This document shows, piece by piece, positions 1 to 10,154 of a stretch of DNA of 10,154 nucleotides. Below the pieces are notes generated by a model that saw only the letters and a program-made list of their open reading frames with translations, made no database searches and was not told where the DNA came from. The DNA is from a virus. A program made the translations under genes and the position numbers. Position 1 is the stretch's first letter. Each line of letters starts with the position of its first letter. The stretch is from the UHGV virus genome UHGV-1550841; one strand, 5' to 3'.

Positions 1-351
1 GCACAGGCAGAACAGAAAGAGGCCGATGCAAAATTGCGTTCGCTGAAAGAACAGGAGAAAGCGACCAATGAACGTGAATCGCAGCGTGCTCTCGATAAGG
101 CGCGCAATGATGCTCTTGATGCTGCCGCTCGCGCTGGCAGGTTGCAGCAACAGCTCGTTGCCATCCGTGAGCAGCTCATGCAGTATAACGCCACTGTCGG
201 CGCTGGGTCGTCAGCCGCAGACACCGGGGTTTTGCTTGCCGACGTGCTCAGCAAATCTCTCGAGCGAAACCGACAGCTGGCAGAGTACGCTGACCGGGCC
301 GCCGAAGCCGGACGAGTCTGTGAAAAGCAGTACGATTCACTGACCAGGTGA
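1..351 (+). CDS. Rz-like inner-membrane spanin (i-spanin), C-terminal part; 5' end lies outside the window
   Basis: Frame 1 is open from the window edge to TGA at 349-351. Ala/Gln/Glu/Arg-rich coiled-coil-like sequence with a Cys near the C-terminus (RVCEKQY), as in lambda Rz. Contains an embedded out-of-frame lipoprotein ORF (68-343), the characteristic Rz/Rz1 arrangement. Confidence 0.45.
   Translation, partial: AQAEQKEADAKLRSLKEQEKATNERESQRALDKARNDALDAAARAGRLQQQLVAIREQLMQYNATVGAGSSAADTGVLLADVLSKSLERNRQLAEYADRAAEAGRVCEKQYDSLTR
68..343 (+). CDS. Rz1-like outer-membrane lipoprotein spanin (o-spanin), embedded in the Rz-like gene in another frame
   Basis: Translation has a hydrophobic signal peptide ending in the lipobox LAGC (MMLLMLPLALAGC), then a Ser/Pro-rich mature region. 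Entirely nested within the 1-351 ORF. Start is uncertain: 68, or the internal ATGs at 107/110. Confidence 0.45.
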   Translation: MNVNRSVLSIRRAMMLLMLPLALAGCSNSSLPSVSSSCSITPLSALGRQPQTPGFCLPTCSANLSSETDSWQSTLTGPPKPDESVKSSTIH

Positions 352-380
352 CATGGCATTTTTCATGGTACTGATTTCCG

Positions 381-390
381 GTGACGGTAT
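381..390 (+). repeat. GTGACGGTAT 10-mer copy 1 (candidate integrase arm-type site)
   Basis: Exact 10-mer. Further exact copies at 603-612 (+), 838-847 (+), 928-937 (+) and 1181-1190 (-), plus a 9/10 copy at 633-642 (-). Confidence 0.4.
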
Positions 391-432
391 ATAAAACGGT
401 ACGGTGAAAAGCGGCTGTGATAAACTTGTTAT

Positions 433-469
433 CACTCAATTGGTTATGTCTATCGTAAATAATTGAGTG
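433..469. repeat. Perfect 9-bp inverted repeat CACTCAATT-N19-AATTGAGTG (candidate att core or protein-binding site)
   Basis: Arms at 433-441 and 461-469 are exact reverse complements. Lies between the lysis cassette and the integrase, flanked by GTGACGGTAT repeats. Confidence 0.35.
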
Positions 470-523
470 GGAATGATTAACAGCTAACTCATAGCAAATC
501 ATTTCTATTCAGATGTCAACTTA

Positions 524-555
524 ACCCTCTGTTTTTGCAGAGGGTTTTTGTTTTT
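524..555 (+). terminator. Rho-independent terminator downstream of the Rz/Rz1 cassette
   Basis: Perfect 8-bp stem ACCCTCTG (524-531) / CAGAGGGT (538-545), 6-nt loop, then TTTTTGTTTTT. Confidence 0.6.
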
Positions 556-602
556 ATGTATTCATTTCTATTCACTCTACACCATATTTTTTGGCGGTAC
601 AG

Positions 603-612
603 GTGACGGTAT
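603..612 (+). repeat. GTGACGGTAT 10-mer copy 2 (candidate integrase arm-type site)
   Basis: Exact 10-mer, 57 bp upstream of the integrase GTG start and abutting an operator-like palindrome. Confidence 0.4.
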
Positions 613-626
613 TACCTTAAAGGTAT
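612..626. promoter_or_regulatory. Operator-like palindrome TTACC-TTAAA-GGTAT (9/10 to TTACC-N5-GGTAA) upstream of int
   Basis: Overlaps a possible -10 (TATACT, 624-629) about 40 bp upstream of the integrase start. Confidence 0.3.
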
Positions 627-632
627 ACTCTC

Positions 633-642
633 ATACCGTCAT
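633..642 (-). repeat. ATGACGGTAT (9/10 copy of the GTGACGGTAT motif, inverted orientation)
   Basis: Plus strand reads ATACCGTCAT. Forms an inverted pair with the copy at 603-612. Confidence 0.3.
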
Positions 643-668
643 GAAAATGGTTTCTATACGGGTGAATT

Positions 669-1925
669 GTGCTTACCGATACAAAATTAAAAAACCTCAA
701 GCCACAGGACAAACTGTACAAAGTTTCCGATCGTGACGGGCTGTATGTGGCTGTGCTTACGTCAGGCACGGTCTCGTTTCGCTACGACTACCGTATCAAC
801 GGTCGCCGCGAAACGCTGGTAATCGGGCAGTATGGGCGTGACGGTATCAGTCTGGCAGAAGCGCGAGAAGAACTGATTGCTGCAAAGAAGCTGCTTAAAG
901 CAGGCCAGTCACCGGCTGCGGCTAAACGTGACGGTATCAAAAAGATTCGTGGTGCCGAGACGTTTGCGGTACATACCGACAGTTATATGAAACACGTCAT
1001 CCTGGCTGACAGTACCCGCGCAATGAAACAGGCGGTGATCGACCGTGACATACTTCCGGTTCTTGGCAATAAAATGATGGCTGAAATTACCACATCGATG
1101 GTTCGTGATTTGTGTGACCGGATTGTCGAACGCGGTGGCCGGGCAACAGCAGTGCAGGCCAGGGAGATCATCAGCAGCGTATACCGTCACGCCAATGACC
1201 GTGGTCATGGTTTGTTTAATCCTGCGGCTGACATTAAACCTTCGTCTATCGCCATATTTAAACCACGAGAGCGAACACTGACACCAGAAGAAATTGGCCT
1301 GTTCTTCCGCACGCTGGATGCCATTGGTGCTATGGGCACTATGAAAATGGCTTTAAAGCTGGTGCTTATCACTATGGTTCGTAAAGGCGAATTCACCAAC
1401 GCAACGTGGGATGAAATAGATTTTAAAAAATGGACATGGACAATTCCTTCAGACCGCATGAAGGGAAGCCGGGCGCACGTTATTTACCTGCCTAAACAGG
1501 CTCAGGATATATTGGTCGGGTTGCAGATGTGCGCTGGTGGAAGTGAATATCTGGTTCCTGGTCGTTACAATTTCCGGAAGCCATTATCTAATGCCGCGCT
1601 GAACTCTCTGATCGACAGAACGGTGAAAATAATAAATGAAGATGGTGAGCATATTCAGGGCTTCACCGTACACGATATGCGCCGTACAGCCAGTACGTTG
1701 TTGCATGAGGCTGGTTATCCTTCAGACTGGATTGAAAAGGCTCTGGCACATGAGCAGAAAGGTGTGCGCGCCGTATATAACAAAGCGGAATACGCCAGAC
1801 AGCGCGCCTACATGTTGCAGCAGTGGGCCGATATGATTGATTCCTGGATTAACGGGGAGCATACGGATCTGATTCCGTTCTCCCCGTCGAAGTTTGAGAG
1901 GTGGATGGAAGACAGTAATAAATAA
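669..1925 (+). CDS. int: Tyrosine site-specific integrase, P4-type (arm-binding N-terminal domain plus catalytic domain)
   Basis: 418 aa. N-terminus LTDTKLKNLKP...GLYVAV...SFRYDYR fits the P4-type integrase arm-binding domain. C-terminal region has the HxxR motif (VHDMRRTAST) and conserved Tyr region. GTG at 669 is the only start available (in-frame TGA at 663-665); SD is weak. Stop TAA 1923-1925. Confidence 0.9.
   Translation: MLTDTKLKNLKPQDKLYKVSDRDGLYVAVLTSGTVSFRYDYRINGRRETLVIGQYGRDGISLAEAREELIAAKKLLKAGQSPAAAKRDGIKKIRGAETFAVHTDSYMKHVILADSTRAMKQAVIDRDILPVLGNKMMAEITTSMVRDLCDRIVERGGRATAVQAREIISSVYRHANDRGHGLFNPAADIKPSSIAIFKPRERTLTPEEIGLFFRTLDAIGAMGTMKMALKLVLITMVRKGEFTNATWDEIDFKKWTWTIPSDRMKGSRAHVIYLPKQAQDILVGLQMCAGGSEYLVPGRYNFRKPLSNAALNSLIDRTVKIINEDGEHIQGFTVHDMRRTASTLLHEAGYPSDWIEKALAHEQKGVRAVYNKAEYARQRAYMLQQWADMIDSWINGEHTDLIPFSPSKFERWMEDSNK
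838..847 (+). repeat. GTGACGGTAT 10-mer copy 3, inside the integrase coding sequence
   Basis: Exact 10-mer; extended match GTGACGGTATCA shared with the copy at 928. Confidence 0.35.
928..937 (+). repeat. GTGACGGTAT 10-mer copy 4, inside the integrase coding sequence
   Basis: Exact 10-mer; extended 12-mer GTGACGGTATCA identical to the copy at 838. Confidence 0.35.
1181..1190 (-). repeat. GTGACGGTAT 10-mer copy 5 (inverted), inside the integrase coding sequence
   Basis: Plus strand reads ATACCGTCAC. It encodes different amino acids from the other in-gene copies, so the repeat is a DNA-level feature. Confidence 0.35.
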
Positions 1926-1927
1926 TT

Positions 1928-2587
1928 CTATCCTTCCTGGACTTTGGTAAGCGTCAGATTTCCGCAGAACACTGCGCCGGTGTCGATGTACATTTGGTTT
2001 GCATACACCAGTGGGTGATGTGCTGGCGTATGACCGAAGATGAACAAATCGGCACCGGTTATCTCCGAGACAATACCGTCCTGCGCGTCGCTAACCCGCT
2101 CACGATTCCATATCACCATTTCTTCCGGTACTGGCTTATCGAATGCGTATTCGTTGTGCGGGTAGTCTGCGTGGCAGATGACGACCTTCTTATTGCCGGT
2201 AACCAGTTCGATAATCATCGGGAGGTTGGCAACCTTTGGCAGAAGGTATTTGATTTGCACATCCTGCTCAGAATCAAGTTGGTGCCACCATCCACCGCCG
2301 TTTGACATCCAATGTCCGAAACTTCCGCCGTTGACCAGTGCATCCAGCATCATCTGCTCATGGTTGCCACGAACAGCTCGGAACCACGGCATAGTAATCA
2401 AATCCAGGCATTCGACGTTTTCAGCGCCGCGGTCAACAAGGTCACCAACGGAAATAAGTAAATCGCGCGCCGGGTCGAATGAAACTTTGTCGAGTTCGTT
2501 CATCAGCAGCGTGTAGCACCCATGCAGATCGCCGACGACGAAGATATTGCACCAGTCAGCGCCATTGATGCGTTGATATAGGTTCAT
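1928..2587 (-). CDS. Ser/Thr protein phosphatase, PP-lambda-like metallophosphoesterase
   Basis: Translation from ATG 2587 ([12 protein letters not shown]...) shows the three phosphoesterase signature motifs GDLHG, GDLVDRG and GNHE. The longer ORF start at 2707 is rejected because ATG 2587 overlaps the upstream gene stop (ATGA). Confidence 0.85.
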
Positions 2588-3234
2588 GCTGCACGCTCCC
2601 GCCCCTGGTTGTCTATTGGTGACACCGGAGCATTGCTGAATGCATTTGTTAATCCTCCAATATCCAACGCGTATCCAGGGTGTAGTTGCACTGCCGGGTC
2701 TTCGCACTGATTACCCCAAACATCGAAGCCATGAGACGTCTGGCGGGCGAACAGTTCAATGCGAGAAACATCGCCTAACAATTGCACAAGTTTTTCACGA
2801 ACGATATCTGGTTTTCTTGAATGCTCAAGCCGCGGTGCGGTAAATGACTGAACGATCCCTGCATTAATGCGCGTAGGTAGTTTTCCCTTTACCGCAAACA
2901 GGCAATCTTCACTATTGGCGCGAGTCATGTGCCCCATACCCATAACCAGTTTATCTGGTTGTCGACTACCACATTTTATCCACGTGAAGCCCTTCATGGT
3001 CATCAGACGGAATCCCCAGGCTTCAACAACTTTTAGTGCTTCGAGTGGTTGTGTTGGCACCCACCACATGGCCAACAGACAGTTTTCATCGGCCAAATCC
3101 CACACAGGAAGGCGGCAGATATCCAGCACACTCATAACCGGATATTTAAAACCGGCACCGCGATTACCATCTGCGGCTTTGTCCCGGTATACCCAGGGTG
3201 GATCTGCATAGATTAGTGTGTATTTCTTAGTCAT
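2584..3234 (-). CDS. MT-A70 family N6-adenine DNA methyltransferase (DPPW motif), orphan, no adjacent restriction gene
   Basis: Translation [14 protein letters not shown]... carries the DPPW catalytic motif near the N-terminus typical of MT-A70/phage adenine methyltransferases. ATG at 3234 is preceded by a G-rich SD-like sequence; the alternative GTG at 3246 is less likely. Stop overlaps the phosphatase start. Confidence 0.8.
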
Positions 3235-3526
3235 AAACCACCCCACAACATCCTATGCCGCTATAGTCGCCACGGCGAAGGCCGTTACCTTTTGTGATAC
3301 ATTGGTCCCTGCGAACCGCGATCCTTGCACGTTCAACATCACCAGAAGCAACATCCATACACTGAAGCCAAAGGTGAGCGGCAATGCGGAATTGCCCTTT
3401 TTTCTCTCTTTCAATCGCGCGTTTTTCGATCTCTATCGCCGCAGGAGTAACGGCGACAATCTTTGACGGACTGCGCATTGAAACCTTATTCATGTGATAT
3501 TTTTCAAGTCGGCTTAACTTTCTCAC
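3227..3526 (-). CDS. Hypothetical protein (99 aa from GTG 3526; alternative ATG start at 3493)
   Basis: ORF in operon orientation filling the gap between the AlpA-like gene and the methyltransferase; its 3' end overlaps the methyltransferase start by 8 nt. GGGGG SD-like sequence upstream of GTG 3526. No recognisable family. Confidence 0.3.
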   Translation of the reverse strand: MRKLSRLEKYHMNKVSMRSPSKIVAVTPAAIEIEKRAIEREKKGQFRIAAHLWLQCMDVASGDVERARIAVRRDQCITKGNGLRRGDYSGIGCCGVVYD

Positions 3527-3635
3527 TTAATCCAACCCCCTCTGAAAATTAATGCCAGCAGATAAAGCCATGCTGAAACAGAGGCCAGGAATAAGTACCA
3601 TCCTGACCATTTGCTCCAGTGCCTTAGCAGCGCAC

Positions 3636-3884
3636 TCATGCAGCGTTGCTCACGGGACGATATACACGTTGCTGAACAGGAGGCTTTTTACCCTGGAACT
3701 CTGCCGGGCTTGCTGCCTGACGTTCATCAAGCCAACGCTCAACTTCATCACGGTTCCATGCGCAGCGTTTATCGGTGATATACCAGCGTTTAGGAAATTC
3801 CCCTGCGCGCTCCATACGGTCGATAGTGCTCCATGACAGTGGCACCACCGCCAGGAGTTCTTTCTTACCTAATGCACCTTTCAT
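3636..3884 (-). CDS. AlpA/Xis-like small DNA-binding protein (putative excisionase or prophage regulator)
   Basis: 82 aa. The segment LLAVVPLSWSTIDRMERAGEFPKRWYITDKRCAWNRDEVERWLDE matches the AlpA/excisionase-type winged-helix pattern. Good SD (AGAGGT) 5-6 nt upstream of ATG 3884. Confidence 0.65.
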   Translation of the reverse strand: MKGALGKKELLAVVPLSWSTIDRMERAGEFPKRWYITDKRCAWNRDEVERWLDERQAASPAEFQGKKPPVQQRVYRPVSNAA

Positions 3885-3933
3885 GAATACCTCTCTTGGT
3901 TGCAGTGCGGCGCACGTGGCGCCGCGGTGGTGG

Positions 3934-4851
3934 TTACATAGATGTTTCGTTTAATTCTTCCCGACGAACGCTGTAAACGTCGGTGGCTTTTGCCAGCAGT
4001 TCGTCATCATCTGAAAGTTTTTGTGCAATGTATTTGTAAGCCTTATCCAGTTCGGAGACAGTGCTGTAATTCATCGCTGCGCTGGTAAAGGCCATCAGCA
4101 TTTCTTCTGGATCACGGCTATCCGCTTTACGCGTTTGCTCATCATGCTTTTTCACTGGTTTAGCGTTGATCAGACTGTTCATGCTGGATGCTGTGCCGTG
4201 CTTTGCCTGACTTCTTGGAGTTACGTCACGTTCAATAATGTCAGGTGAGTCGATATATTTACCTTCCATTTCCTCAGCTGTGGCTTGTTGACCAATCTCC
4301 GGCCATGCTTTACGTAATGCCTGTGCCTCTGCGCATTTTGCCAACTGCGCATAAGGGCGCTTTTTCCACATGGCATTTGGTGCCGATGTGTCACGCCCCC
4401 CAGTTGCATAGTTCTCAATCCAGTATTCTTTGGCGCTAAACTCTACGATTTCCCCGCTTGCCATTCGCTTGCTGACGGTGTACTTACACCACTGAGGGAA
4501 GGTAACCTCCACGCCTGAAAGCGTTTGTGTTACATCTGGACCGAACTCAGGTTCATTAGCGCCTGCGTAATCGCCGGAACGGTAGGCCTGAATGCGATAA
4601 AGTCCAATGCCAGGCATGACCACGTCGCGCCATTCATTCTTTCCACTCTTCGAGTCTTTAACACTCATTGGTACCAGGTGTACCGGCTTAAGAAGAGGAT
4701 CGAGTTGACGCGCCCGGCAGTAATCGACTGCCATCATTACCGATTCATCTTTTGCCCCAGGGTAAATACTGTTTTTCAGAGCGCTCCATGTAACTTCATC
4801 GATTCCCCGAATAGCCAACACATCATTGGTGATTGCAATTTCGTTGCTCAT
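3934..4851 (-). CDS. recT: RecT/Bet-family single-strand annealing recombinase
   Basis: Translation from ATG 4851 (MSNEIAITND...). The region NAMWKKRPYAQLAKCAEAQALRKAWPE resembles the conserved RecT/Bet C-terminal core. ATG overlaps the TGA of the upstream exonuclease gene (ATGA), the classic exo-recT pairing. Confidence 0.8.
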   Translation of the reverse strand: MSNEIAITNDVLAIRGIDEVTWSALKNSIYPGAKDESVMMAVDYCRARQLDPLLKPVHLVPMSVKDSKSGKNEWRDVVMPGIGLYRIQAYRSGDYAGANEPEFGPDVTQTLSGVEVTFPQWCKYTVSKRMASGEIVEFSAKEYWIENYATGGRDTSAPNAMWKKRPYAQLAKCAEAQALRKAWPEIGQQATAEEMEGKYIDSPDIIERDVTPRSQAKHGTASSMNSLINAKPVKKHDEQTRKADSRDPEEMLMAFTSAAMNYSTVSELDKAYKYIAQKLSDDDELLAKATDVYSVRREELNETSM

Positions 4852-5669
4852 ACGTACATATCCTGTTTGCGTGCCCACTCAGGGCGTTTAATAATTTCCA
4901 CGCCGCCCCATTCATCGCTGATGCGGCATTCGTGATAGGTATTCAGATCCCGGCGGAACAGAGCGTGCCCGGCATCGACATCCGGCGCATCCAGCTCGAA
5001 CACGCGTACCGGATACCGACCACAATCAATGCTTTCGCTCACGGCAAGAAAGAAAAAACCATGCGGCTGACCAGTAACCCTCATTGCGCCTTCGCGGTAC
5101 ATTGCGTCCTGCACGTGGTAGCGGAATTCCTCGATGTGACGTGCAAAACGGTCCATATCTGCAACCTTTTTCACGTCGATGATCACGTTGTGCTCGTTCA
5201 GCCATTTGTCTGGACGAATTCGGCACAACTCACCAGTCTCTTCATCGTTCCAGTACATTGATGCTTCGCAGTAACCAGGTGCTTCCAGCATCCAGCGTGC
5301 CGCCGGGTGAGCCATTGCGCTATCACGCATCAGCTCCAGTTTCCGCCACTGCTCGGCATCAAGTACCGCAATCCCCATATCCGCTACATCACGAAGAAAT
5401 GCTTCTTCGTCAGCTTTACCTTGTTTCGTCCGACGATCGAACTTTGGTGAAACAATGAAGCGTTTGTCGAATTCTCCAGGCTCCAGAAGCAGACAGTGCA
5501 ATGCAGTTCCCATATCTAGTGCAGACTTTTTCTCTTCGTCTTCTGGTGCTGCCTGAACCCATTTAAGAAGCGCCGGATTCTTGGCAACCATGTCCAGTTG
5601 CGACTTACTCACGCCGTCACCGGCGTGGTAGTCCTCATTGCTGATGTCGAAATAGATGCCAGTATTCAT
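4848..5669 (-). CDS. RecE-like PD-(D/E)xK exonuclease (partner of RecT)
   Basis: 273 aa. N-terminus FDISNEDYHAGDGVSKSQLDM is typical of RecE-like/PDDEXK exonuclease domains, with an IIDVKK-type motif downstream. Translationally coupled to recT. Confidence 0.75.
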   Translation of the reverse strand: MNTGIYFDISNEDYHAGDGVSKSQLDMVAKNPALLKWVQAAPEDEEKKSALDMGTALHCLLLEPGEFDKRFIVSPKFDRRTKQGKADEEAFLRDVADMGIAVLDAEQWRKLELMRDSAMAHPAARWMLEAPGYCEASMYWNDEETGELCRIRPDKWLNEHNVIIDVKKVADMDRFARHIEEFRYHVQDAMYREGAMRVTGQPHGFFFLAVSESIDCGRYPVRVFELDAPDVDAGHALFRRDLNTYHECRISDEWGGVEIIKRPEWARKQDMYV

Positions 5670-5872
5670 AACTTAACCTTGTATTCGTTCTGCTTGTTGG
5701 AACGGGTTCCATCGTGGAAATATATTGCGCTCCTGGTTACCTCTACCCATTTGCGACGTTCAAGCTCAGCGATGAACCAAGAAACCTTCGATCTTGAGAT
5801 ACCAAGAATCTTTGCCATATCTCGGATGCTGTGTTTTCCACCTCGCAGCAATGAGAGGAGTGTTGGTTTCAT
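5666..5872 (-). CDS. Small helix-turn-helix (winged-helix-like) DNA-binding protein, unknown role
   Basis: 68 aa. HTH-like segment SIRDMAKILGISRSKVSWFIAELERRKWVE. SD GAGGGA 7 nt upstream of ATG 5872. ATGA overlaps with both neighbouring genes. Confidence 0.5.
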   Translation of the reverse strand: MKPTLLSLLRGGKHSIRDMAKILGISRSKVSWFIAELERRKWVEVTRSAIYFHDGTRSNKQNEYKVKL

Positions 5873-6168
5873 GCCGCGTCCCTCTGTCCATCAAGCTGAT
5901 CCGCCAGATCCCAGCGGGCGATAATTACCATTGCCTCTCGCCGATAGGCATCCATCAGTTCTTCGAACTCAGGGCTGTCTTTAGCAGCCTCCAGTACTTC
6001 CTGGCGAACGCCTTTGCCTGTTACAACGTCGAAAGTTGAGGACAGTTGATGAAGTCGGATGCTCTCAATCAGTTCAACTTGTCGGTCATATAGCTGTTCT
6101 GACAGGCGGTAGTCCTTGTCGAATGCCAGCATGATTTTTTGAAGATTTTTCTGCTGATTAACGTCCAT
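5869..6168 (-). CDS. Hypothetical protein (about 99 aa), occupies the position of Gam/Kil-type accessory genes upstream of the recombination genes
   Basis: ATG 6168 has a strong SD (GGAGGG, 6175-6180) and is preferred over ATG 6183. Stop overlaps the start of the HTH gene. No recognisable family. Confidence 0.5.
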   Translation of the reverse strand: MDVNQQKNLQKIMLAFDKDYRLSEQLYDRQVELIESIRLHQLSSTFDVVTGKGVRQEVLEAAKDSPEFEELMDAYRREAMVIIARWDLADQLDGQRDAA

Positions 6169-6170
6169 TA

Positions 6171-6323
6171 TCAGCCCTCCCATATCTCGTTATCGTTGGC
6201 CACATCGCGAGCTTCTTTGCTGACGAAAGCCCACTTAATGCCTTCCTGTAAGGTGCGGAACTTCCAGCTCATGAATCCGCATGCAGTAACGCAGTACCAA
6301 CCGTTGATGATTTTCCACTGCAT
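6171..6323 (-). CDS. Small ORF (50 aa), first gene of the leftward early operon; not N-like
   Basis: Manually translated (below the size cut-off of the ORF track): MQWKIINGWYCVTACGFMSWKFRTLQEGIKWAFVSKEARDVANDNEIWEG. ATG 6323 preceded by GAGGT; stop TGA 6171-6173 sits immediately before the next gene's SD and ATG. Confidence 0.3.
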   Translation of the reverse strand: MQWKIINGWYCVTACGFMSWKFRTLQEGIKWAFVSKEARDVANDNEIWEG

Positions 6324-6342
6324 AACTTGTTACCTCGGTTTG

Positions 6343-6357
6343 TTACCGTTGGGGTAA
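6343..6357. promoter_or_regulatory. Operator OL-proximal: perfect palindrome TTACC-GTTGG-GGTAA
   Basis: Perfect half-sites. Abuts the proposed -10 of the leftward early promoter. Confidence 0.5.
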
Positions 6358-6385
6358 TAATTATGCGTATCTGGTTTGATGTCAA
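6357..6385 (-). promoter_or_regulatory. PL-like sigma70 promoter for the leftward early operon (-35 TTGACA at 6385-6380, 17-bp spacer, -10 AATTAT at 6362-6357)
   Basis: Consensus -35 hexamer read on the minus strand; 17-bp spacer; moderate -10. Bracketed by two operator palindromes. Confidence 0.4.
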
Positions 6386-6404
6386 TAGATATGAGTTAAA
6401 AAAA

Positions 6405-6419
6405 TTACCCGTTAGGTAA
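6405..6419. promoter_or_regulatory. Operator OL-distal: perfect palindrome TTACC-CGTTA-GGTAA
   Basis: Perfect half-sites, 19 bp upstream of the -35 of the PL-like promoter; centre-to-centre 62 bp from the site at 6343-6357. Confidence 0.5.
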
Positions 6420-6430
6420 TCTAACAGGCA

Positions 6431-6455
6431 ATAAAAAAGCCGCCAGAAGGCGGCT
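6431..6455 (-). terminator. Rho-independent terminator downstream of the repressor gene (minus strand)
   Basis: Stem AGCCGCC (6438-6444) / GGCGGCT (6449-6455) with AGAA loop; on the minus strand it is followed by a run of T (plus-strand AAAAAA at 6433-6438). Confidence 0.6.
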
Positions 6456-6476
6456 TACTTACTGAAAAATATGATT

Positions 6477-7061
6477 TTATTGTTTGTTTTTTTCGTTCTG
6501 GTTGATGACAAATTCAATGTAACTTTCGATCTTTGCTTTCTCGGTTTCGGGTAACAATGCGTAGCGCGAGCGGTCATAGTTGATAGTCGCAGGGTCGTGC
6601 GGGTGAATCAGTAGTTCATAGCCGTGACGCCCGAATGCGGATGCAACATTCTCCAGGGTGGAAATGGAAACGCTGACCTCATTGTTTAACAGGCGGCTGA
6701 TTGTCACCTGGGCGACGCCGGATGCGCGGTGAAGTTTTCCCTGTGTTGAAAGGTCGCGGCTTTCGCTCATCCAGCGTTCCAGGTTGTGAGCCGCCAGCTG
6801 ACCTATATCGCTCGGGCCGACAGGCTGAAAACCCTCCTGAGAAAGCGAACGATCAATATCAAGCCAGTTACGGGGTTTATTGGCGGCAGCTTCAATTTTT
6901 CGCGCAACCTGGTCGCCGATAACCTTCTTGCCAAGAGCCCAGCGGTTTACCAGATTTGCCTGAGTTCCAAGTTTTTCTGCCATCCGCGTCTGAACACCAT
7001 TGAATTCACGGTCGATCAAGTCGTTGAGATTTTGCCTGCGGACGTCCTGGATACTTTTCAT
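6477..7061 (-). CDS. Immunity repressor candidate with two tandem HTH (XRE-like) domains and no recognisable LexA/S24-type autocleavage domain
   Basis: 194 aa. N-terminal HTH-like segment (TRMAEKLGTQANLVNRW) and a second HTH-like segment (LHRASGVAQVTISRLLNNEVSVSISTLENVASAFG). Transcribed divergently from the Cro-like gene; flanked by operator palindromes on both sides and followed by a hairpin terminator. Confidence 0.75.
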   Translation of the reverse strand: MKSIQDVRRQNLNDLIDREFNGVQTRMAEKLGTQANLVNRWALGKKVIGDQVARKIEAAANKPRNWLDIDRSLSQEGFQPVGPSDIGQLAAHNLERWMSESRDLSTQGKLHRASGVAQVTISRLLNNEVSVSISTLENVASAFGRHGYELLIHPHDPATINYDRSRYALLPETEKAKIESYIEFVINQNEKNKQ

Positions 7062-7116
7062 TTTCTGGAAAATCGCCTCATATATGAATCAGTAGATGAT
7101 TCAATTTAAAGCAATA

Positions 7117-7131
7117 TTACCCAACAGGTAA
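7117..7131. promoter_or_regulatory. Operator OR site 1: perfect palindrome TTACC-CAACA-GGTAA
   Basis: Perfect half-sites in the divergent repressor / Cro-like intergenic region. Confidence 0.5.
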
Positions 7132-7133
7132 AT

Positions 7134-7148
7134 GCACCTCATAGGTAA
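7134..7148. promoter_or_regulatory. Operator OR site 2 (imperfect): GCACC-TCATA-GGTAA
   Basis: 8/10 match to the half-site consensus, 2 bp from site 1. Confidence 0.3.
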
Positions 7149-7164
7149 CTATCCTTGATTTTTG

Positions 7165-7179
7165 TTACCTTATGGGTGA
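7165..7179. promoter_or_regulatory. Operator OR site 3 (imperfect): TTACC-TTATG-GGTGA
   Basis: 9/10 match; lies between a -35-like TTGATT (7155-7160) and the Cro-like start. Confidence 0.3.
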
Positions 7180-7215
7180 ATATTTATTATCTGAAATAAA
7201 TATCAGGCAATAGCT

Positions 7216-7446
7216 ATGAGCGATAACGGACATTTCGATTTCAAAAAGCACTGGCTTGCACTTACTCCGGATGAGCGTGAAGCCTTCGCACAGGAAGCCG
7301 GAACGACGAGTCACTATATCCAGACTCACTTAACAGGTAAGCGCAAAATGCCAGGTAAAGTATTGATGAATGGGCTTTTTAAAGCCTGTAAAACAAGACA
7401 ATGGTTGCGCTCAAAAGCAGAACTGGCATACTTCTTCTACTCATGA
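7216..7446 (+). CDS. Cro-like (possibly CII-like) small HTH regulator, first gene of the rightward operon
   Basis: 76 aa. HTH-like segment EAFAQEAGTTSHYIQTHLTGKRKMPGKVLMNG. Position directly divergent from the repressor across the operator cluster. Confidence 0.55.
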   Translation: MSDNGHFDFKKHWLALTPDEREAFAQEAGTTSHYIQTHLTGKRKMPGKVLMNGLFKACKTRQWLRSKAELAYFFYS

Positions 7447-7468
7447 TATCCAGCTACACCCCTCTGTA

Positions 7469-7490
7469 GACCGCCACCCGGCGGTCTTTT
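7469..7490 (+). terminator. tR1-like rho-independent terminator after the Cro-like gene
   Basis: Stem GACCGCC (7469-7475) / GGCGGTC (7480-7486), loop ACCC, then TTTT. Confidence 0.5.
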
Positions 7491-7501
7491 CATATCTATT
7501 C

Positions 7502-7516
7502 GCACCTTAAAGGTAA
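7502..7516. promoter_or_regulatory. Operator-like palindrome (imperfect): GCACC-TTAAA-GGTAA, upstream of the replication genes
   Basis: 8/10 match; same TTAAA spacer as the site at 612-626 and same GCACC left half as OR site 2. Confidence 0.3.
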
Positions 7517-7597
7517 TAAAAAACCAAATATGGTTGATCTTTTTTTTGTGTCAGCACAAAATAACCGTAATCCCAATACTAATAACAGGGCTTACCA

Positions 7598-7797
7598 TGG
7601 AAATCATTACACGTATTGATGCCGCAAAGCGCGGACTTAAACGCTACTACACCGGAAAAACATGTAAGCACGGACATGACAGTGAACGCTGGGTTTACAA
7701 TGGACACTGTGTTGAGTGCACCATGGAATCAAACCGTCGTATCAGGGCAGAGATTAAGCAGATCATGATTAATTCCTCCCCACAACATTCAAGCTGA
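7598..7797 (+). CDS. Small Cys/His-rich (putative zinc-binding) protein at the cII position
   Basis: 66 aa from ATG 7598 (MEIITRIDAAKRGLKRYYTGKTCKHGHDSERWVYNGHCVEC...), motif C-x-H-x-H...C-x2-C. The longer ORF in the track starts at TTG 7534 and would run through the operator and terminator region, so the ATG is preferred. Confidence 0.4.
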
Positions 7798-7812
7798 TAG
7801 CGGAGATTAATC

Positions 7813-8628
7813 ATGAGCAGACATGCAACAGATTGGGCCTGGGAGACAGATCCAGGTAGCTCGTCATTAAAGCTCATACTGCTCTCGATGGCTGACAGAG
7901 CCGATGAATATAACCTCTGCTACCCCAGCATAGAACGCCTCGTTAAAGACACTTGCCTGAATAAAAAAACCGTGCAGGCCGGGCTTATATCGCTCATGAA
8001 AATGGGGCTTATTTCAGATACCGGAGAGAGAAAGGGAGCGACGAAAAGAGTGCGGGTTTTCTCTCTTAATATAACCAAAAACGGGAACATTAAAGGCAAC
8101 CGGGAAGGGGGTAACGAACCCGAAAACGGTAATGTTACCGAAAACGGGAATATACCCAAAAACGGGATGTTGAATGATCCCAAAAACGGGATGTTGAATG
8201 ATCCCAAAAACGGGATCCAGAACCAGTCATATAACCAGTCATTTAACCAAGAGAGGGAGAGCAGGACAAAAAGCGGGGATTCTGTGCCTCATGACCCCGG
8301 AGCAAACAACGCCGTGATGAATAACTTTGTTCCTCCTGGTGGGCCAGGGCAATTAGGCAAATTTGTCATGCATGAACAATGGCAGCCATCAGATGACTTT
8401 CTTCGGAAAAGCTCATTGCAGGGGATCTACCTGGACAGTCTGCCAACGGCACAGGAACTTGCAGAGTTCAGAATTTACTGGATGGCTGAGGGTAAGGCAT
8501 ACCATCAGGCACAGTGGGAGCAGAAGCTGGCAAGGCGGCTGCAGATTAGCAGACAGAAGCAATCAACATTACCTGATAACAACGTTCCGCACTGGAACAG
8601 CCCTGAAGCATGGGAGGATTTCTTGTGA
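7813..8628 (+). CDS. Replication initiator, lambda-O-like in organisation (N-terminal winged-helix, internal iteron-encoded repeat linker, C-terminal domain)
   Basis: 271 aa. GGAG SD 8 nt upstream of ATG 7813. N-terminal HTH-like region (LKLILLSMADRADEYNLCYPSIERLVKDTCLNKKTVQAGLISLMKMGLI). The central part is encoded by direct DNA repeats (iterons). Directly followed by a lambda-P-like gene. Confidence 0.75.
   Translation: MSRHATDWAWETDPGSSSLKLILLSMADRADEYNLCYPSIERLVKDTCLNKKTVQAGLISLMKMGLISDTGERKGATKRVRVFSLNITKNGNIKGNREGGNEPENGNVTENGNIPKNGMLNDPKNGMLNDPKNGIQNQSYNQSFNQERESRTKSGDSVPHDPGANNAVMNNFVPPGGPGQLGKFVMHEQWQPSDDFLRKSSLQGIYLDSLPTAQELAEFRIYWMAEGKAYHQAQWEQKLARRLQISRQKQSTLPDNNVPHWNSPEAWEDFL
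8076..8218. repeat. Origin-type iterons inside the O-like gene: six copies of an AAAACGG(G) core, including a perfect 24-bp tandem repeat
   Basis: Cores start at 8078, 8123, 8141, 8159, 8183 and 8207. CCCAAAAACGGGATGTTGAATGAT occurs at 8155-8178 and 8179-8202, with a partial third copy at 8203-8218. Followed by the direct repeat AACCAGTCAT x2 (8221-8242). Confidence 0.6.
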
Positions 8629-9410
8629 ACAACGTTTTTACCGCGATACAAAACCGTGACGGAGAAGCCCTTTCTCGCATGTCAGGTTATGAGCATCAGT
8701 ACGTCAACAATGACAATGTGGTGAACATGTCAGCAGAGAGGCTTGTTGATGCCCTTTTTAAACAGCTGAAACAACTGTTTCCGGCGGCAGTGGTAACCAA
8801 CCTGAAGACGCCAGAGCAGGAAGTTGCTGCAAAACAGCAGTGGATTGCTGCGTTTGCCGAAGGGGGGATCCGAACCCGTGAACAGGTTTCTGCTGGTATG
8901 CGCCACGCCCGCGCCAGTGAATCTCCGTTCTGGCCGTCTCCAGGGCAATTTATCAAGTGGTGCAAAGACAGCAAGATGGTTCTTGGCGTCACCATTGACG
9001 ATGTGATGGCGGAGTTTCACCGGTACAGCAAGGAAAAAAGTTTATATCCTGGTGGTCCCGAAAGATTCCCGTGGCGACATCCGGTTATGTACTGGGTCGT
9101 ATGTGATACCCGCCGTGCAATGTATCAGCGCCAGCTTAGCGAGATTGAGGTTGAGAAACACGCACGCAGGCTGCTCGATGATTGGGCGAAAAAGGTGGCT
9201 TCCGGACAGCAGATACCCGATCCGGTGATCAGCATACAGGCAAAGCCAGAGCCCATGAGTACGCCTCCGGACACAGGGAGAGACGTTTACCATCCACCAG
9301 GGCGAAGTTTCGGGTGCATGCCTAACGCCGCCACCCTTGGGGGAATAACACCGGCGCAGTGGCTGATGGAGGAATACAGGCGGGGAAAGGCGGCAGGATT
9401 TATCAAGTAA
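8625..9410 (+). CDS. Lambda-P-like replication protein (helicase loader)
   Basis: Translation aligns by eye with lambda P as I recall it (FPA...QW.AAF.E.GI.T.EQV.AGMR.AR....PF.PSPGQF..WC, and LYP....PW...YW). GTG 8625 has a GGGAGGA SD at 8612-8618 and overlaps the O-like stop; ATG 8610 is an alternative start. Confidence 0.8.
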   Translation: MNNVFTAIQNRDGEALSRMSGYEHQYVNNDNVVNMSAERLVDALFKQLKQLFPAAVVTNLKTPEQEVAAKQQWIAAFAEGGIRTREQVSAGMRHARASESPFWPSPGQFIKWCKDSKMVLGVTIDDVMAEFHRYSKEKSLYPGGPERFPWRHPVMYWVVCDTRRAMYQRQLSEIEVEKHARRLLDDWAKKVASGQQIPDPVISIQAKPEPMSTPPDTGRDVYHPPGRSFGCMPNAATLGGITPAQWLMEEYRRGKAAGFIK

Positions 9411-9415
9411 TACCA

Positions 9416-9435
9416 GCGCGATAGCGCATTTTTTT
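9416..9435 (+). terminator. Weak hairpin plus T-tract after the P-like gene
   Basis: GCGC-GATA-GCGC followed by ATTTTTTT. Stem is only 4 bp, so strength is doubtful. Confidence 0.25.
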
Positions 9436-9447
9436 ACGTCTCAATAA

Positions 9448-9462
9448 TTACCTATCAGGTAA
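9448..9462. promoter_or_regulatory. Operator: perfect palindrome TTACC-TATCA-GGTAA
   Basis: Perfect half-sites, 19 bp upstream of a -35-like TTGATT. Confidence 0.5.
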
Positions 9463-9481
9463 CAAAACATTCTAAAATCTA

Positions 9482-9510
9482 TTGATTTCGTGTCTTATGT
9501 GGTTTTTAAT
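9482..9510 (+). promoter_or_regulatory. Sigma70-like promoter (-35 TTGATT at 9482-9487, 17-bp spacer, -10 TTTAAT at 9505-9510) bracketed by two operators
   Basis: Hexamers and spacing read directly; geometry relative to the flanking palindromes is identical to the PL-like promoter. Confidence 0.4.
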
Positions 9511-9524
9511 TACCTTAGAGGTAA
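9510..9524. promoter_or_regulatory. Operator: perfect palindrome TTACC-TTAGA-GGTAA overlapping the -10, start region and SD of the DUF1064-like gene
   Basis: Perfect half-sites; centre-to-centre 62 bp from the site at 9448-9462. Confidence 0.5.
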
Positions 9525-9527
9525 ATC

Positions 9528-9872
9528 ATGAGAAAACAGATACAGGCTCTTGGTCGACTCAAAACAGGCCAGATGAACAAAACAGAATCTGCGTATTGCC
9601 AGCACCTTGAGCAGCGTAAACGTGCAGGGGAAATCGCCTGGTATCGATTCGAGGGTATCAAGTTGCGGTTAGCTGACAACACGTTCTATACGCCCGATTT
9701 TGCTGTGATGCTCGCCACCGGCGAGATGGAACTGCACGAAGTGAAAGGTTTCTGGACCGACGACGCCAGGGTGAAAACCAAAGTCGCCGCAGATCAGTAT
9801 CCGTTCCGAATCATCGGGGTAACGGTTAAGCCAAAGAAAGCAGGTGGTGGCTGGAACATCGAAGAGTTCTGA
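9528..9872 (+). CDS. DUF1064-like phage protein (small, possibly nuclease-fold)
   Basis: 114 aa. Pattern KTESAY..HLEQRKRAGEI..YRFEGIKLRLADNTFYTPDF...HEVKGFWT resembles what I recall of the DUF1064 prophage family. AGAGGT SD 5 nt upstream of ATG. Confidence 0.5.
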   Translation: MRKQIQALGRLKTGQMNKTESAYCQHLEQRKRAGEIAWYRFEGIKLRLADNTFYTPDFAVMLATGEMELHEVKGFWTDDARVKTKVAADQYPFRIIGVTVKPKKAGGGWNIEEF

Positions 9873-9933
9873 ATCGACGATCTTTTTAGTTATCAATGTA
9901 ATCAATAAGTTATGTGGATAAGCGAGGGTAAAG

Positions 9934-10154
9934 ATGGAAAGTAATATCAAAGGGTTAGTTGCCGCCGGGCATGAGATGGCTTCGGAACTGAAAGCAGAAT
10001 GTGGTGCCGTTGATATGCGCAGTGTGGCAAAGCTGATCAGCGATTTGGCAACGCAACTGGAAGTGCAACTGGTGCGTGCTAATGCGCTGGCCGAAGACCA
10101 CCAGAGAGCGATTGAGTCAATTAAGCAGGCTGATTCGGCTGTTAAGTTGGCACA
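9934..10154 (+). CDS. Hypothetical protein, 5' part only (continues beyond window end)
   Basis: ATG 9934 preceded by GAGGG (9924-9928). Frame stays open to the window edge (MESNIKGLVAAGHEMASELKAECGAVDMRSVAKLISDLATQLEVQLVRANALAEDHQRAIESIKQADSAVKLA...). Confidence 0.4.
   Translation, partial: MESNIKGLVAAGHEMASELKAECGAVDMRSVAKLISDLATQLEVQLVRANALAEDHQRAIESIKQADSAVKLA

Follow-up and report, generated by a model that had tools for sequence, protein, structure and literature searches.

Work on the spanins of phages lambda, T7 and P2 has been summarised previously (PMC6139136). In lambda Rz/Rz1, as in the pair described here, the gene for an outer-membrane lipoprotein lies wholly within the gene for an inner-membrane coiled-coil protein and is read in the +1 frame. 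The spanins likewise come last in the lysis cassette, and both subunits carry periplasmic cysteines. The 2018 spanin census (Kongari et al., 2018; PMC6139136) placed the 'Lambda' and 'Bcep176' spanins in separate families and described embedded spanins as typically running from 0.4-0.5 to 0.9-1.0 of the i-spanin length. The embedded 'Bcep176' i- and o-spanin families of that census include those of epsilon15, phiV10, TL-2011b and SPN1S, with SPN9TCW, SPC32H/N, Bcep176, KS9, BcepC6B and eiAU-183 as further members.

The RefSeq genomes of epsilon15 and phiV10 share the gene order membrane protein, holin, endolysin, Rz with an embedded Rz1, attP sites, terminator and integrase. In both, a 483-nt Rz-like spanin gene contains a 276-nt Rz-like spanin gene that starts at nt 200 in the +1 frame (gp26/Rz1 in epsilon15, PhiV10p30/p30a in phiV10), an arrangement that matches the locus studied here. 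Bcep176 resembles the relatives of this locus in having a holin, an endolysin and an Rz gene with an embedded Rz1, but its endolysin is of the SAR type and its cassette is followed by other genes and not by attP-int. Enterobacter phage Tyrion carries two holin-like genes, an endolysin and a spanin with an embedded o-spanin, and its gene at the int position is annotated only as a hypothetical protein.

Identity and Gene Order of the Locus

The stretch of DNA analysed (hereafter the window) comprises 10,154 nt of the virus genome UHGV-1550841, and its left edge cuts through an i-spanin gene, upstream of which a holin and an endolysin are expected from its relatives. By nucleotide comparison phiV10, BP9 and PAS61 were ~97% identical to the window over 49-10091. 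A megablast search with window positions 1-700 matched 62 phage records, 21 of which, including phiV10, epsilon15, SPN1S, vB_EcoP_ZX5 and BP9, were colinear with it over 49-700. Judged by this identity and colinearity, the window is from an epsilon15/phiV10-like temperate podophage of the genus Uetakevirus.

The comparison covered 82 related loci, two from RefSeq phages and 80 from IMG/VR contigs, all of which contained both spanin frames. These reduced to 71 distinct Rz sequences, one of which was an anchoring artefact, leaving 70; the 67 ungapped 483-nt Rz genes served for the comparison of residues and starts. The original prediction called for holin and endolysin genes to be sought upstream and for gene order to be compared with related phages. 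The window is cut before it reaches that region, but among the relatives these genes were found directly upstream of the spanins in 81/82 and 80/82 loci, respectively, so that their absence, named in the prediction as refuting, is contradicted at the related loci. The spanin ORFs of the window lie at coordinates equivalent to the annotated Rz and Rz1 of epsilon15 and phiV10. We regard it as nearly certain that window positions 1-351 are the end of a late lysis cassette, an embedded two-component spanin of an epsilon15/phiV10-like phage, lying next to attP-int. Membership of the window copy in that cassette is suggested by the gene order of its relatives.

Downstream of the spanin pair, the plus strand encodes a P4-type tyrosine integrase of 418 aa (669-1925) with Arm-DNA-bind_3, Phage_int_M and Phage_integrase domains. 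A profile search matched it to PHROG 1 (E 4.5e-87), and it is 87% identical to epsilon15 Int. Two observations were made elsewhere in the window. Translation of the ORF at 7813-8628 gave a DnaT-like replication protein with an Asn/Gly-rich run of short repeats (…NGNVTENGNIPKNGMLNDPKNGMLNDPKNGIQNQSYNQSFNQ…). On the minus strand, a Ser/Thr phosphatase ORF (1928-2707) and an MT-A70 methyltransferase ORF (2584-3246) share ~120 nt; because the phosphatase gene is annotated at 660 nt in one related prophage, its start in the window is probably an internal codon.

The Outer Gene Encodes an i-Spanin of the DUF2514 Family

The first stop codon in frame 1 of the plus strand is a TGA at 349-351. It is preceded by 116 codons that reach back to nt 1, where the window cuts the ORF off. 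This ORF (1-351, +) was identified as the 3' part of an i-spanin gene, codons 45-160 and the stop. It matched Pfam PF10721 DUF2514 (E 2.2e-31; profile positions 45-161 of 161) and the PHROG 312 'Rz-like spanin' family (E 7.7e-35), and its product has 87% amino-acid identity to epsilon15 Rz. A tblastn search with the Rz fragment also found Bcep176 gp56/gp57 and eiAU-183. Pfam matches at E up to 1 returned DUF2514 alone, with the lambda-type Rz family absent, and the census treats the two families as separate; membership of the lambda Rz family was rejected on these grounds.

In a single-sequence AlphaFold2 model made with no alignment (mean pLDDT 84.8), the Rz fragment formed a helix at residues 2-66, a GAGSS loop at 67-71 and a second helix at 72-115, and two long helices with a short Gly/Ser loop between them are accordingly predicted for the periplasmic part of the i-spanin. 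The window does not include the first 44 codons of this gene, which contain the membrane anchor. A hydrophobic stretch opened the N-terminus in all five of the full-length homologues inspected (e.g., WKQLLIVSMLAALVAGGVVAW), and one transmembrane domain is annotated in epsilon15 Rz. A cysteine near the C-terminus, Rz C151, is present in the window and in 67/67 homologues.

The Embedded Gene Encodes a Putative Outer-Membrane Lipoprotein

Within the i-spanin gene, in frame 2 (+1 relative to the outer ORF), an ORF on the plus strand starts with ATG 68 and ends with a stop at 341-343. This o-spanin gene (68-343) encodes a lipoprotein of 91 aa, MNVNRSVLSIRRAMMLLMLPLALAGC followed by 65 more residues, that matched PHROG 11621, 'Rz-like spanin', over positions 3-88 of 88 (E 4.6e-38) and is 87% identical in amino-acid sequence to epsilon15 Rz1, so that both spanins of the window stand at ~87% amino-acid identity to those of epsilon15. 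The nested Rz/Rz1-type pair put forward in the original prediction is therefore matched by DUF2514, PHROG 312 and PHROG 11621 and is annotated as such in epsilon15 and phiV10. In full-length homologues the inner gene occupies nt 200-475 of 483, that is 0.41-0.98 of the i-spanin length.

The signal peptide with an LAGC lipobox that had been read from the sequence was confirmed by a regular expression and by PROSITE PS00013. The lipobox L-A-G-C (aa 23-26) is encoded at 134-145 (+), with the Cys26 codon at 143-145. Read from Met1, the product conforms to PS00013: the cysteine falls in the range 15-35, Arg5 is among the first seven residues, and the six positions ahead of the lipobox are uncharged. 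Cys26 and compliance with PS00013 were found in 67/67 o-spanin homologues and a serine at position +2 in 66/67. Under the Lol sorting rule, lipoproteins with a +2 residue other than Asp go to the outer membrane. Since the +2 residue here is Ser and not Asp, an outer-membrane location is predicted for the o-spanin.

The mature o-spanin of 66 aa contains 17 Ser, 7 Thr, 8 Pro and 4 Cys, with Ser, Thr and Pro together making up 48%. The Pro/Ser-rich tail of the original prediction is thus Ser(/Thr)-rich, as claimed, but with 8 Pro in 66 aa it is not strongly Pro-rich; mature lambda Rz1, by comparison, has 10 Pro in 40 aa (PMC6139136). Two cysteines, Rz1 C56 and C60, are shared by the window and 67/67 homologues. 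Residue 38 (window 179-181) is a Cys in the window and a Gly in 66/67 homologues, the change to Cys being shared by 1/67. It gives the mature o-spanin a fourth cysteine, and the Rz frame accommodates the same nucleotide substitution.

The sequence AGGAG at 53-57 (+), 10 nt before ATG 68, is the likely Shine-Dalgarno sequence of the o-spanin gene; in the 67 homologues, the upstream variants that are common keep CAGGAGAAAG ahead of the o-spanin start. An internal start at Met14/15 was considered and rejected. With this start the cysteine would be residue 13 and a basic n-region would be lacking, contrary to PS00013; it is also disfavoured by the conservation of ATG 68 and AGGAG.

Conservation of the Nested Frame

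The +1 ORF could in principle be an unexpressed chance frame in an Ala/Gln/Arg-rich coiled-coil gene, with the DUF2514 protein acting alone. We resampled the Rz fragment with synonymous codons in 20,000 trials, and an open run of at least 91 codons in the +1 frame arose in 10% of the resamplings, which lends this explanation some support and makes ORF length alone weak evidence. The full arrangement of Met, lipobox and tail arose in 1.6%. Automatic NCBI annotations of E. coli carry the DUF2514 protein only, as a chance frame would lead one to expect, but the spanin census notes that embedded o-spanin genes often go unannotated as CDSs and lists 196/528 two-component systems with no identified o-spanin (PMC6139136).

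Conservation also speaks against a chance frame. The +1 frame was open in 70/70 distinct homologues, with LAGC in 67 and LVGC in three. The ATG at nt 200 was present in 67/67 ungapped homologues, as were the signal peptide, Cys26 and Cys56/Cys60, with no stop in any of them, and AGGAG was retained in the common upstream variants. An embedded o-spanin gene also occurs in the distant phages Bcep176 and Tyrion. Together with the match to PHROG 11621, the conservation in 70 distinct homologues settles the question, and a chance origin of the frame appears very improbable.

Nucleotide diversity at third codon positions of Rz was 0.268 upstream of the overlap compared to 0.094 within it. This reduction fits dual coding but is partly confounded by conservation at the protein level, as the amino-acid sequence, too, varies less in the C-terminal half of Rz (amino-acid diversity of 0.053 compared to 0.221).

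The attP Region Separates the Lysis Cassette From int

The 317 nt between the lysis cassette and int (352-668) form the attP region, within which prophage records break: their Rz-side matches stop at 478 and their int-side matches begin at 462-478. In the equivalent spacer of epsilon15, Int, IHF and RNase III sites and a terminator are annotated. The 17-bp attP core, ATTGAGTGGGAATGATT, occurs at 462-478 (+) as a single exact match in the window, with 0 expected by chance. An identical core is known from the published attP of phiV10, epsilon15 and vB_EcoP_ZX5, phages that use the 3' end of guaA as their integration site (PMC9782041); epsilon15 and phiV10 further resemble the window in having a terminator and a P4-type integrase downstream of it. 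The core includes ATT GAG TGG GAA TGA, which reads IEWE-stop and is the last four codons and stop of host guaA, so that integration preserves guaA.

The int start at 669 lies about 190 bp past the core. In an E. coli EC2 lysogen, the end of guaA coincides with the core and int begins 193 nt beyond it, a spacing as in the window. At attL of EC2 the prophage differs at the 17th core base and the end of guaA reads ATTGAGTGGGAATGA, as expected; owing to this difference, a string search for the exact 17-bp core gave no match at EC2 attL. On the attR side, the Rz end of the prophage stops at the core and adjoins yfgI.

A Rho-independent terminator-like hairpin and T tract lie at 523-556 (+), with a 10-bp stem and a 4-nt loop (hairpin 523-546), and a terminator is annotated at the equivalent place in epsilon15 and phiV10. 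This terminator sits on the int side of the core, between the core and int. In a lysogen it would therefore lie behind guaA, while the lysis operon at attR would lose its terminator and face yfgI.

A repeat search found the arm-type repeat GTGACGGTAT on the plus strand at 381-390, 603-612, 838-847 and 928-937, with the first of these as the P-arm copy, and on the minus strand at 633-642 (1 mismatch) and 1181-1190. These six matches compare to 0.35 expected, and six were reached in 0/200 shuffles. Three copies lie in the spacer and three within the int coding sequence, and the equivalent repeat positions in epsilon15 are annotated as integrase binding sites. With this core, a P4-type integrase and the guaA 3' end as its apparent target, the window carries what by sequence is a Uetakevirus attP-int module.

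In Uetakevirus, attP follows the last late gene and precedes int, which is why the lysis cassette adjoins int; by comparison with its relatives this adjacency is the normal vegetative map of the genus. The lambda cassette follows Q and is far from int, whereas that of the window ends the late operon beside attP-int. Of the explanations first offered for the position of the spanins, a genome architecture different from that of lambda was the correct general one, the order holin, endolysin, Rz/Rz1, attP, int being that of Uetakevirus. Integration at guaA splits Rz and int to opposite ends of the prophage, so that an intact Rz-attP-int stretch indicates a tandem prophage or else a genome in phage or excised form.

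Tandem Lysogens and Allelic Exchange at the Junction

Among 567 matching E. coli genomes, 562 had no single match across the junction, and among the matches listed the Rz side ended at 478; the unspanned junction is explained by single prophages. In the other five genomes the stretch 49-700 was contiguous in the chromosome, and each of these had three places in the record. In one of them, E. coli Z1323CEC0007, the capsid proteins WP_000012377.1 and WP_000424495.1 occur on both sides of the junction, at a distance of ~40 kb, which identifies it as a tandem Uetakevirus double lysogen. Upstream of the intact Rz-attP-int junction of this strain, the holin gene contains an internal stop and is labelled a pseudogene.

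These five genomes, and the duplicated capsid proteins of Z1323CEC0007 in particular, give substance to the possibility that the adjacency in the window stems from a chromosomal tandem lysogen in which head-to-tail prophages recreate an attP-like junction. The tandem junction raised in the original prediction is to this extent a real chromosomal route, and the 10 kb of the window fit either origin, holding nothing that separates a phage from a tandem. Against this, 21 phage records have the same contiguous stretch as their normal map, and tandems are far fewer than the single prophages that break at 462-478. We therefore think a tandem origin of the window unlikely, and it would leave the reading of the spanins unchanged.

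The original prediction also mentioned a mosaic prophage junction. Such a mosaic or degraded joint would fuse a lysis-gene remnant of one prophage to the integration module of an unrelated one. Identity to phiV10 does vary along the window in a way that a mosaic joint could produce, at 58% over 1-48 and 89% over 49-351, against 98% on the int side. Rz, attP and int are nevertheless colinear in 21 phage records, which contradicts a joint between unrelated prophages. The published attP core, the arm-type repeats, the terminator and both spanin frames are also intact, and the divergent positions 1-48 match other Uetakevirus prophages at 90%. Such a mosaic is extremely improbable.

The variation in identity has a narrower explanation. 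Window positions 1-48 have 58% identity to phiV10 and epsilon15 and 90% identity to the allele of the E. coli EC2 prophage, and thus represent a different allele of the Rz middle region from that of phiV10 and epsilon15. Positions 49-351 are 89-94% identical to phiV10, epsilon15 and the EC2 prophage. This contrast points to allelic exchange within the i-spanin gene, at a point immediately ahead of the ribosome-binding site of Rz1. The low-identity lysis end indicates recombination within the genus, with the cassette apparently the same. We prefer the reading of the junction as the vegetative map of a Uetakevirus. That the window is a tandem double lysogen, or that Cys38 alters the disulfide pattern of the spanins, has a low probability, and the identity of the element would be unaffected in either case.

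Proposed Mechanism of Lysis

The lysis function of the epsilon15-type pair is deduced from work on the non-homologous spanins of lambda, T7 and P2, and we found no experiments on spanins of the epsilon15/Bcep176 family in the literature examined. By analogy to lambda, the i-spanin would be anchored in the inner membrane by its N-terminal helix, which the window edge cuts off. The o-spanin would be translated in the +1 frame from ATG 68, its signal of 25 residues would be cleaved before Cys26, and this cysteine would be lipidated, with the +2 Ser directing the protein to the outer membrane. The mature o-spanin would then be a Ser/Thr/Pro-rich periplasmic chain of 66 residues that is probably largely unstructured.

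As in lambda Rz/Rz1, the C-terminal parts of the i- and o-spanin may bind to each other across the periplasm. The cysteines of both proteins appear suited to intermolecular disulfide bonds, the bonding itself being predicted, and Rz C151 together with Rz1 C56 and C60 may stabilise the complex covalently. Once the peptidoglycan has been cleared through the action of holin and endolysin, fusion of the inner and outer membranes by the complex would complete lysis. The window pair is thus expected to work like lambda Rz/Rz1 while belonging to the Bcep176/epsilon15 sequence family.

Implications for Annotation of Uetakevirus Genomes

The pair is already known: reference genomes carry its annotation, and the spanin census assigns it to a family. 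The closest of the 67 homologues have Rz and Rz1 each 93% identical to those of the window, with a best nucleotide identity of 95% over 1-351. The significance of the locus beyond correct annotation is small, as it is a textbook-style embedded spanin of a described genus. In the NCBI annotation of two E. coli chromosomal loci (L083, 2869-3351; L084, from the Z1323CEC0007 chromosome, 19821-20303), a 'DUF2514 domain-containing protein' stands alone and the evident +1 o-spanin gene is omitted. In practical terms, automatic annotation of E. coli by NCBI still misses the embedded o-spanin gene. An intact Rz-attP-int stretch, in turn, is a handy marker of Uetakevirus genomes that are free or excised and of tandem lysogens, in contrast to single prophages.
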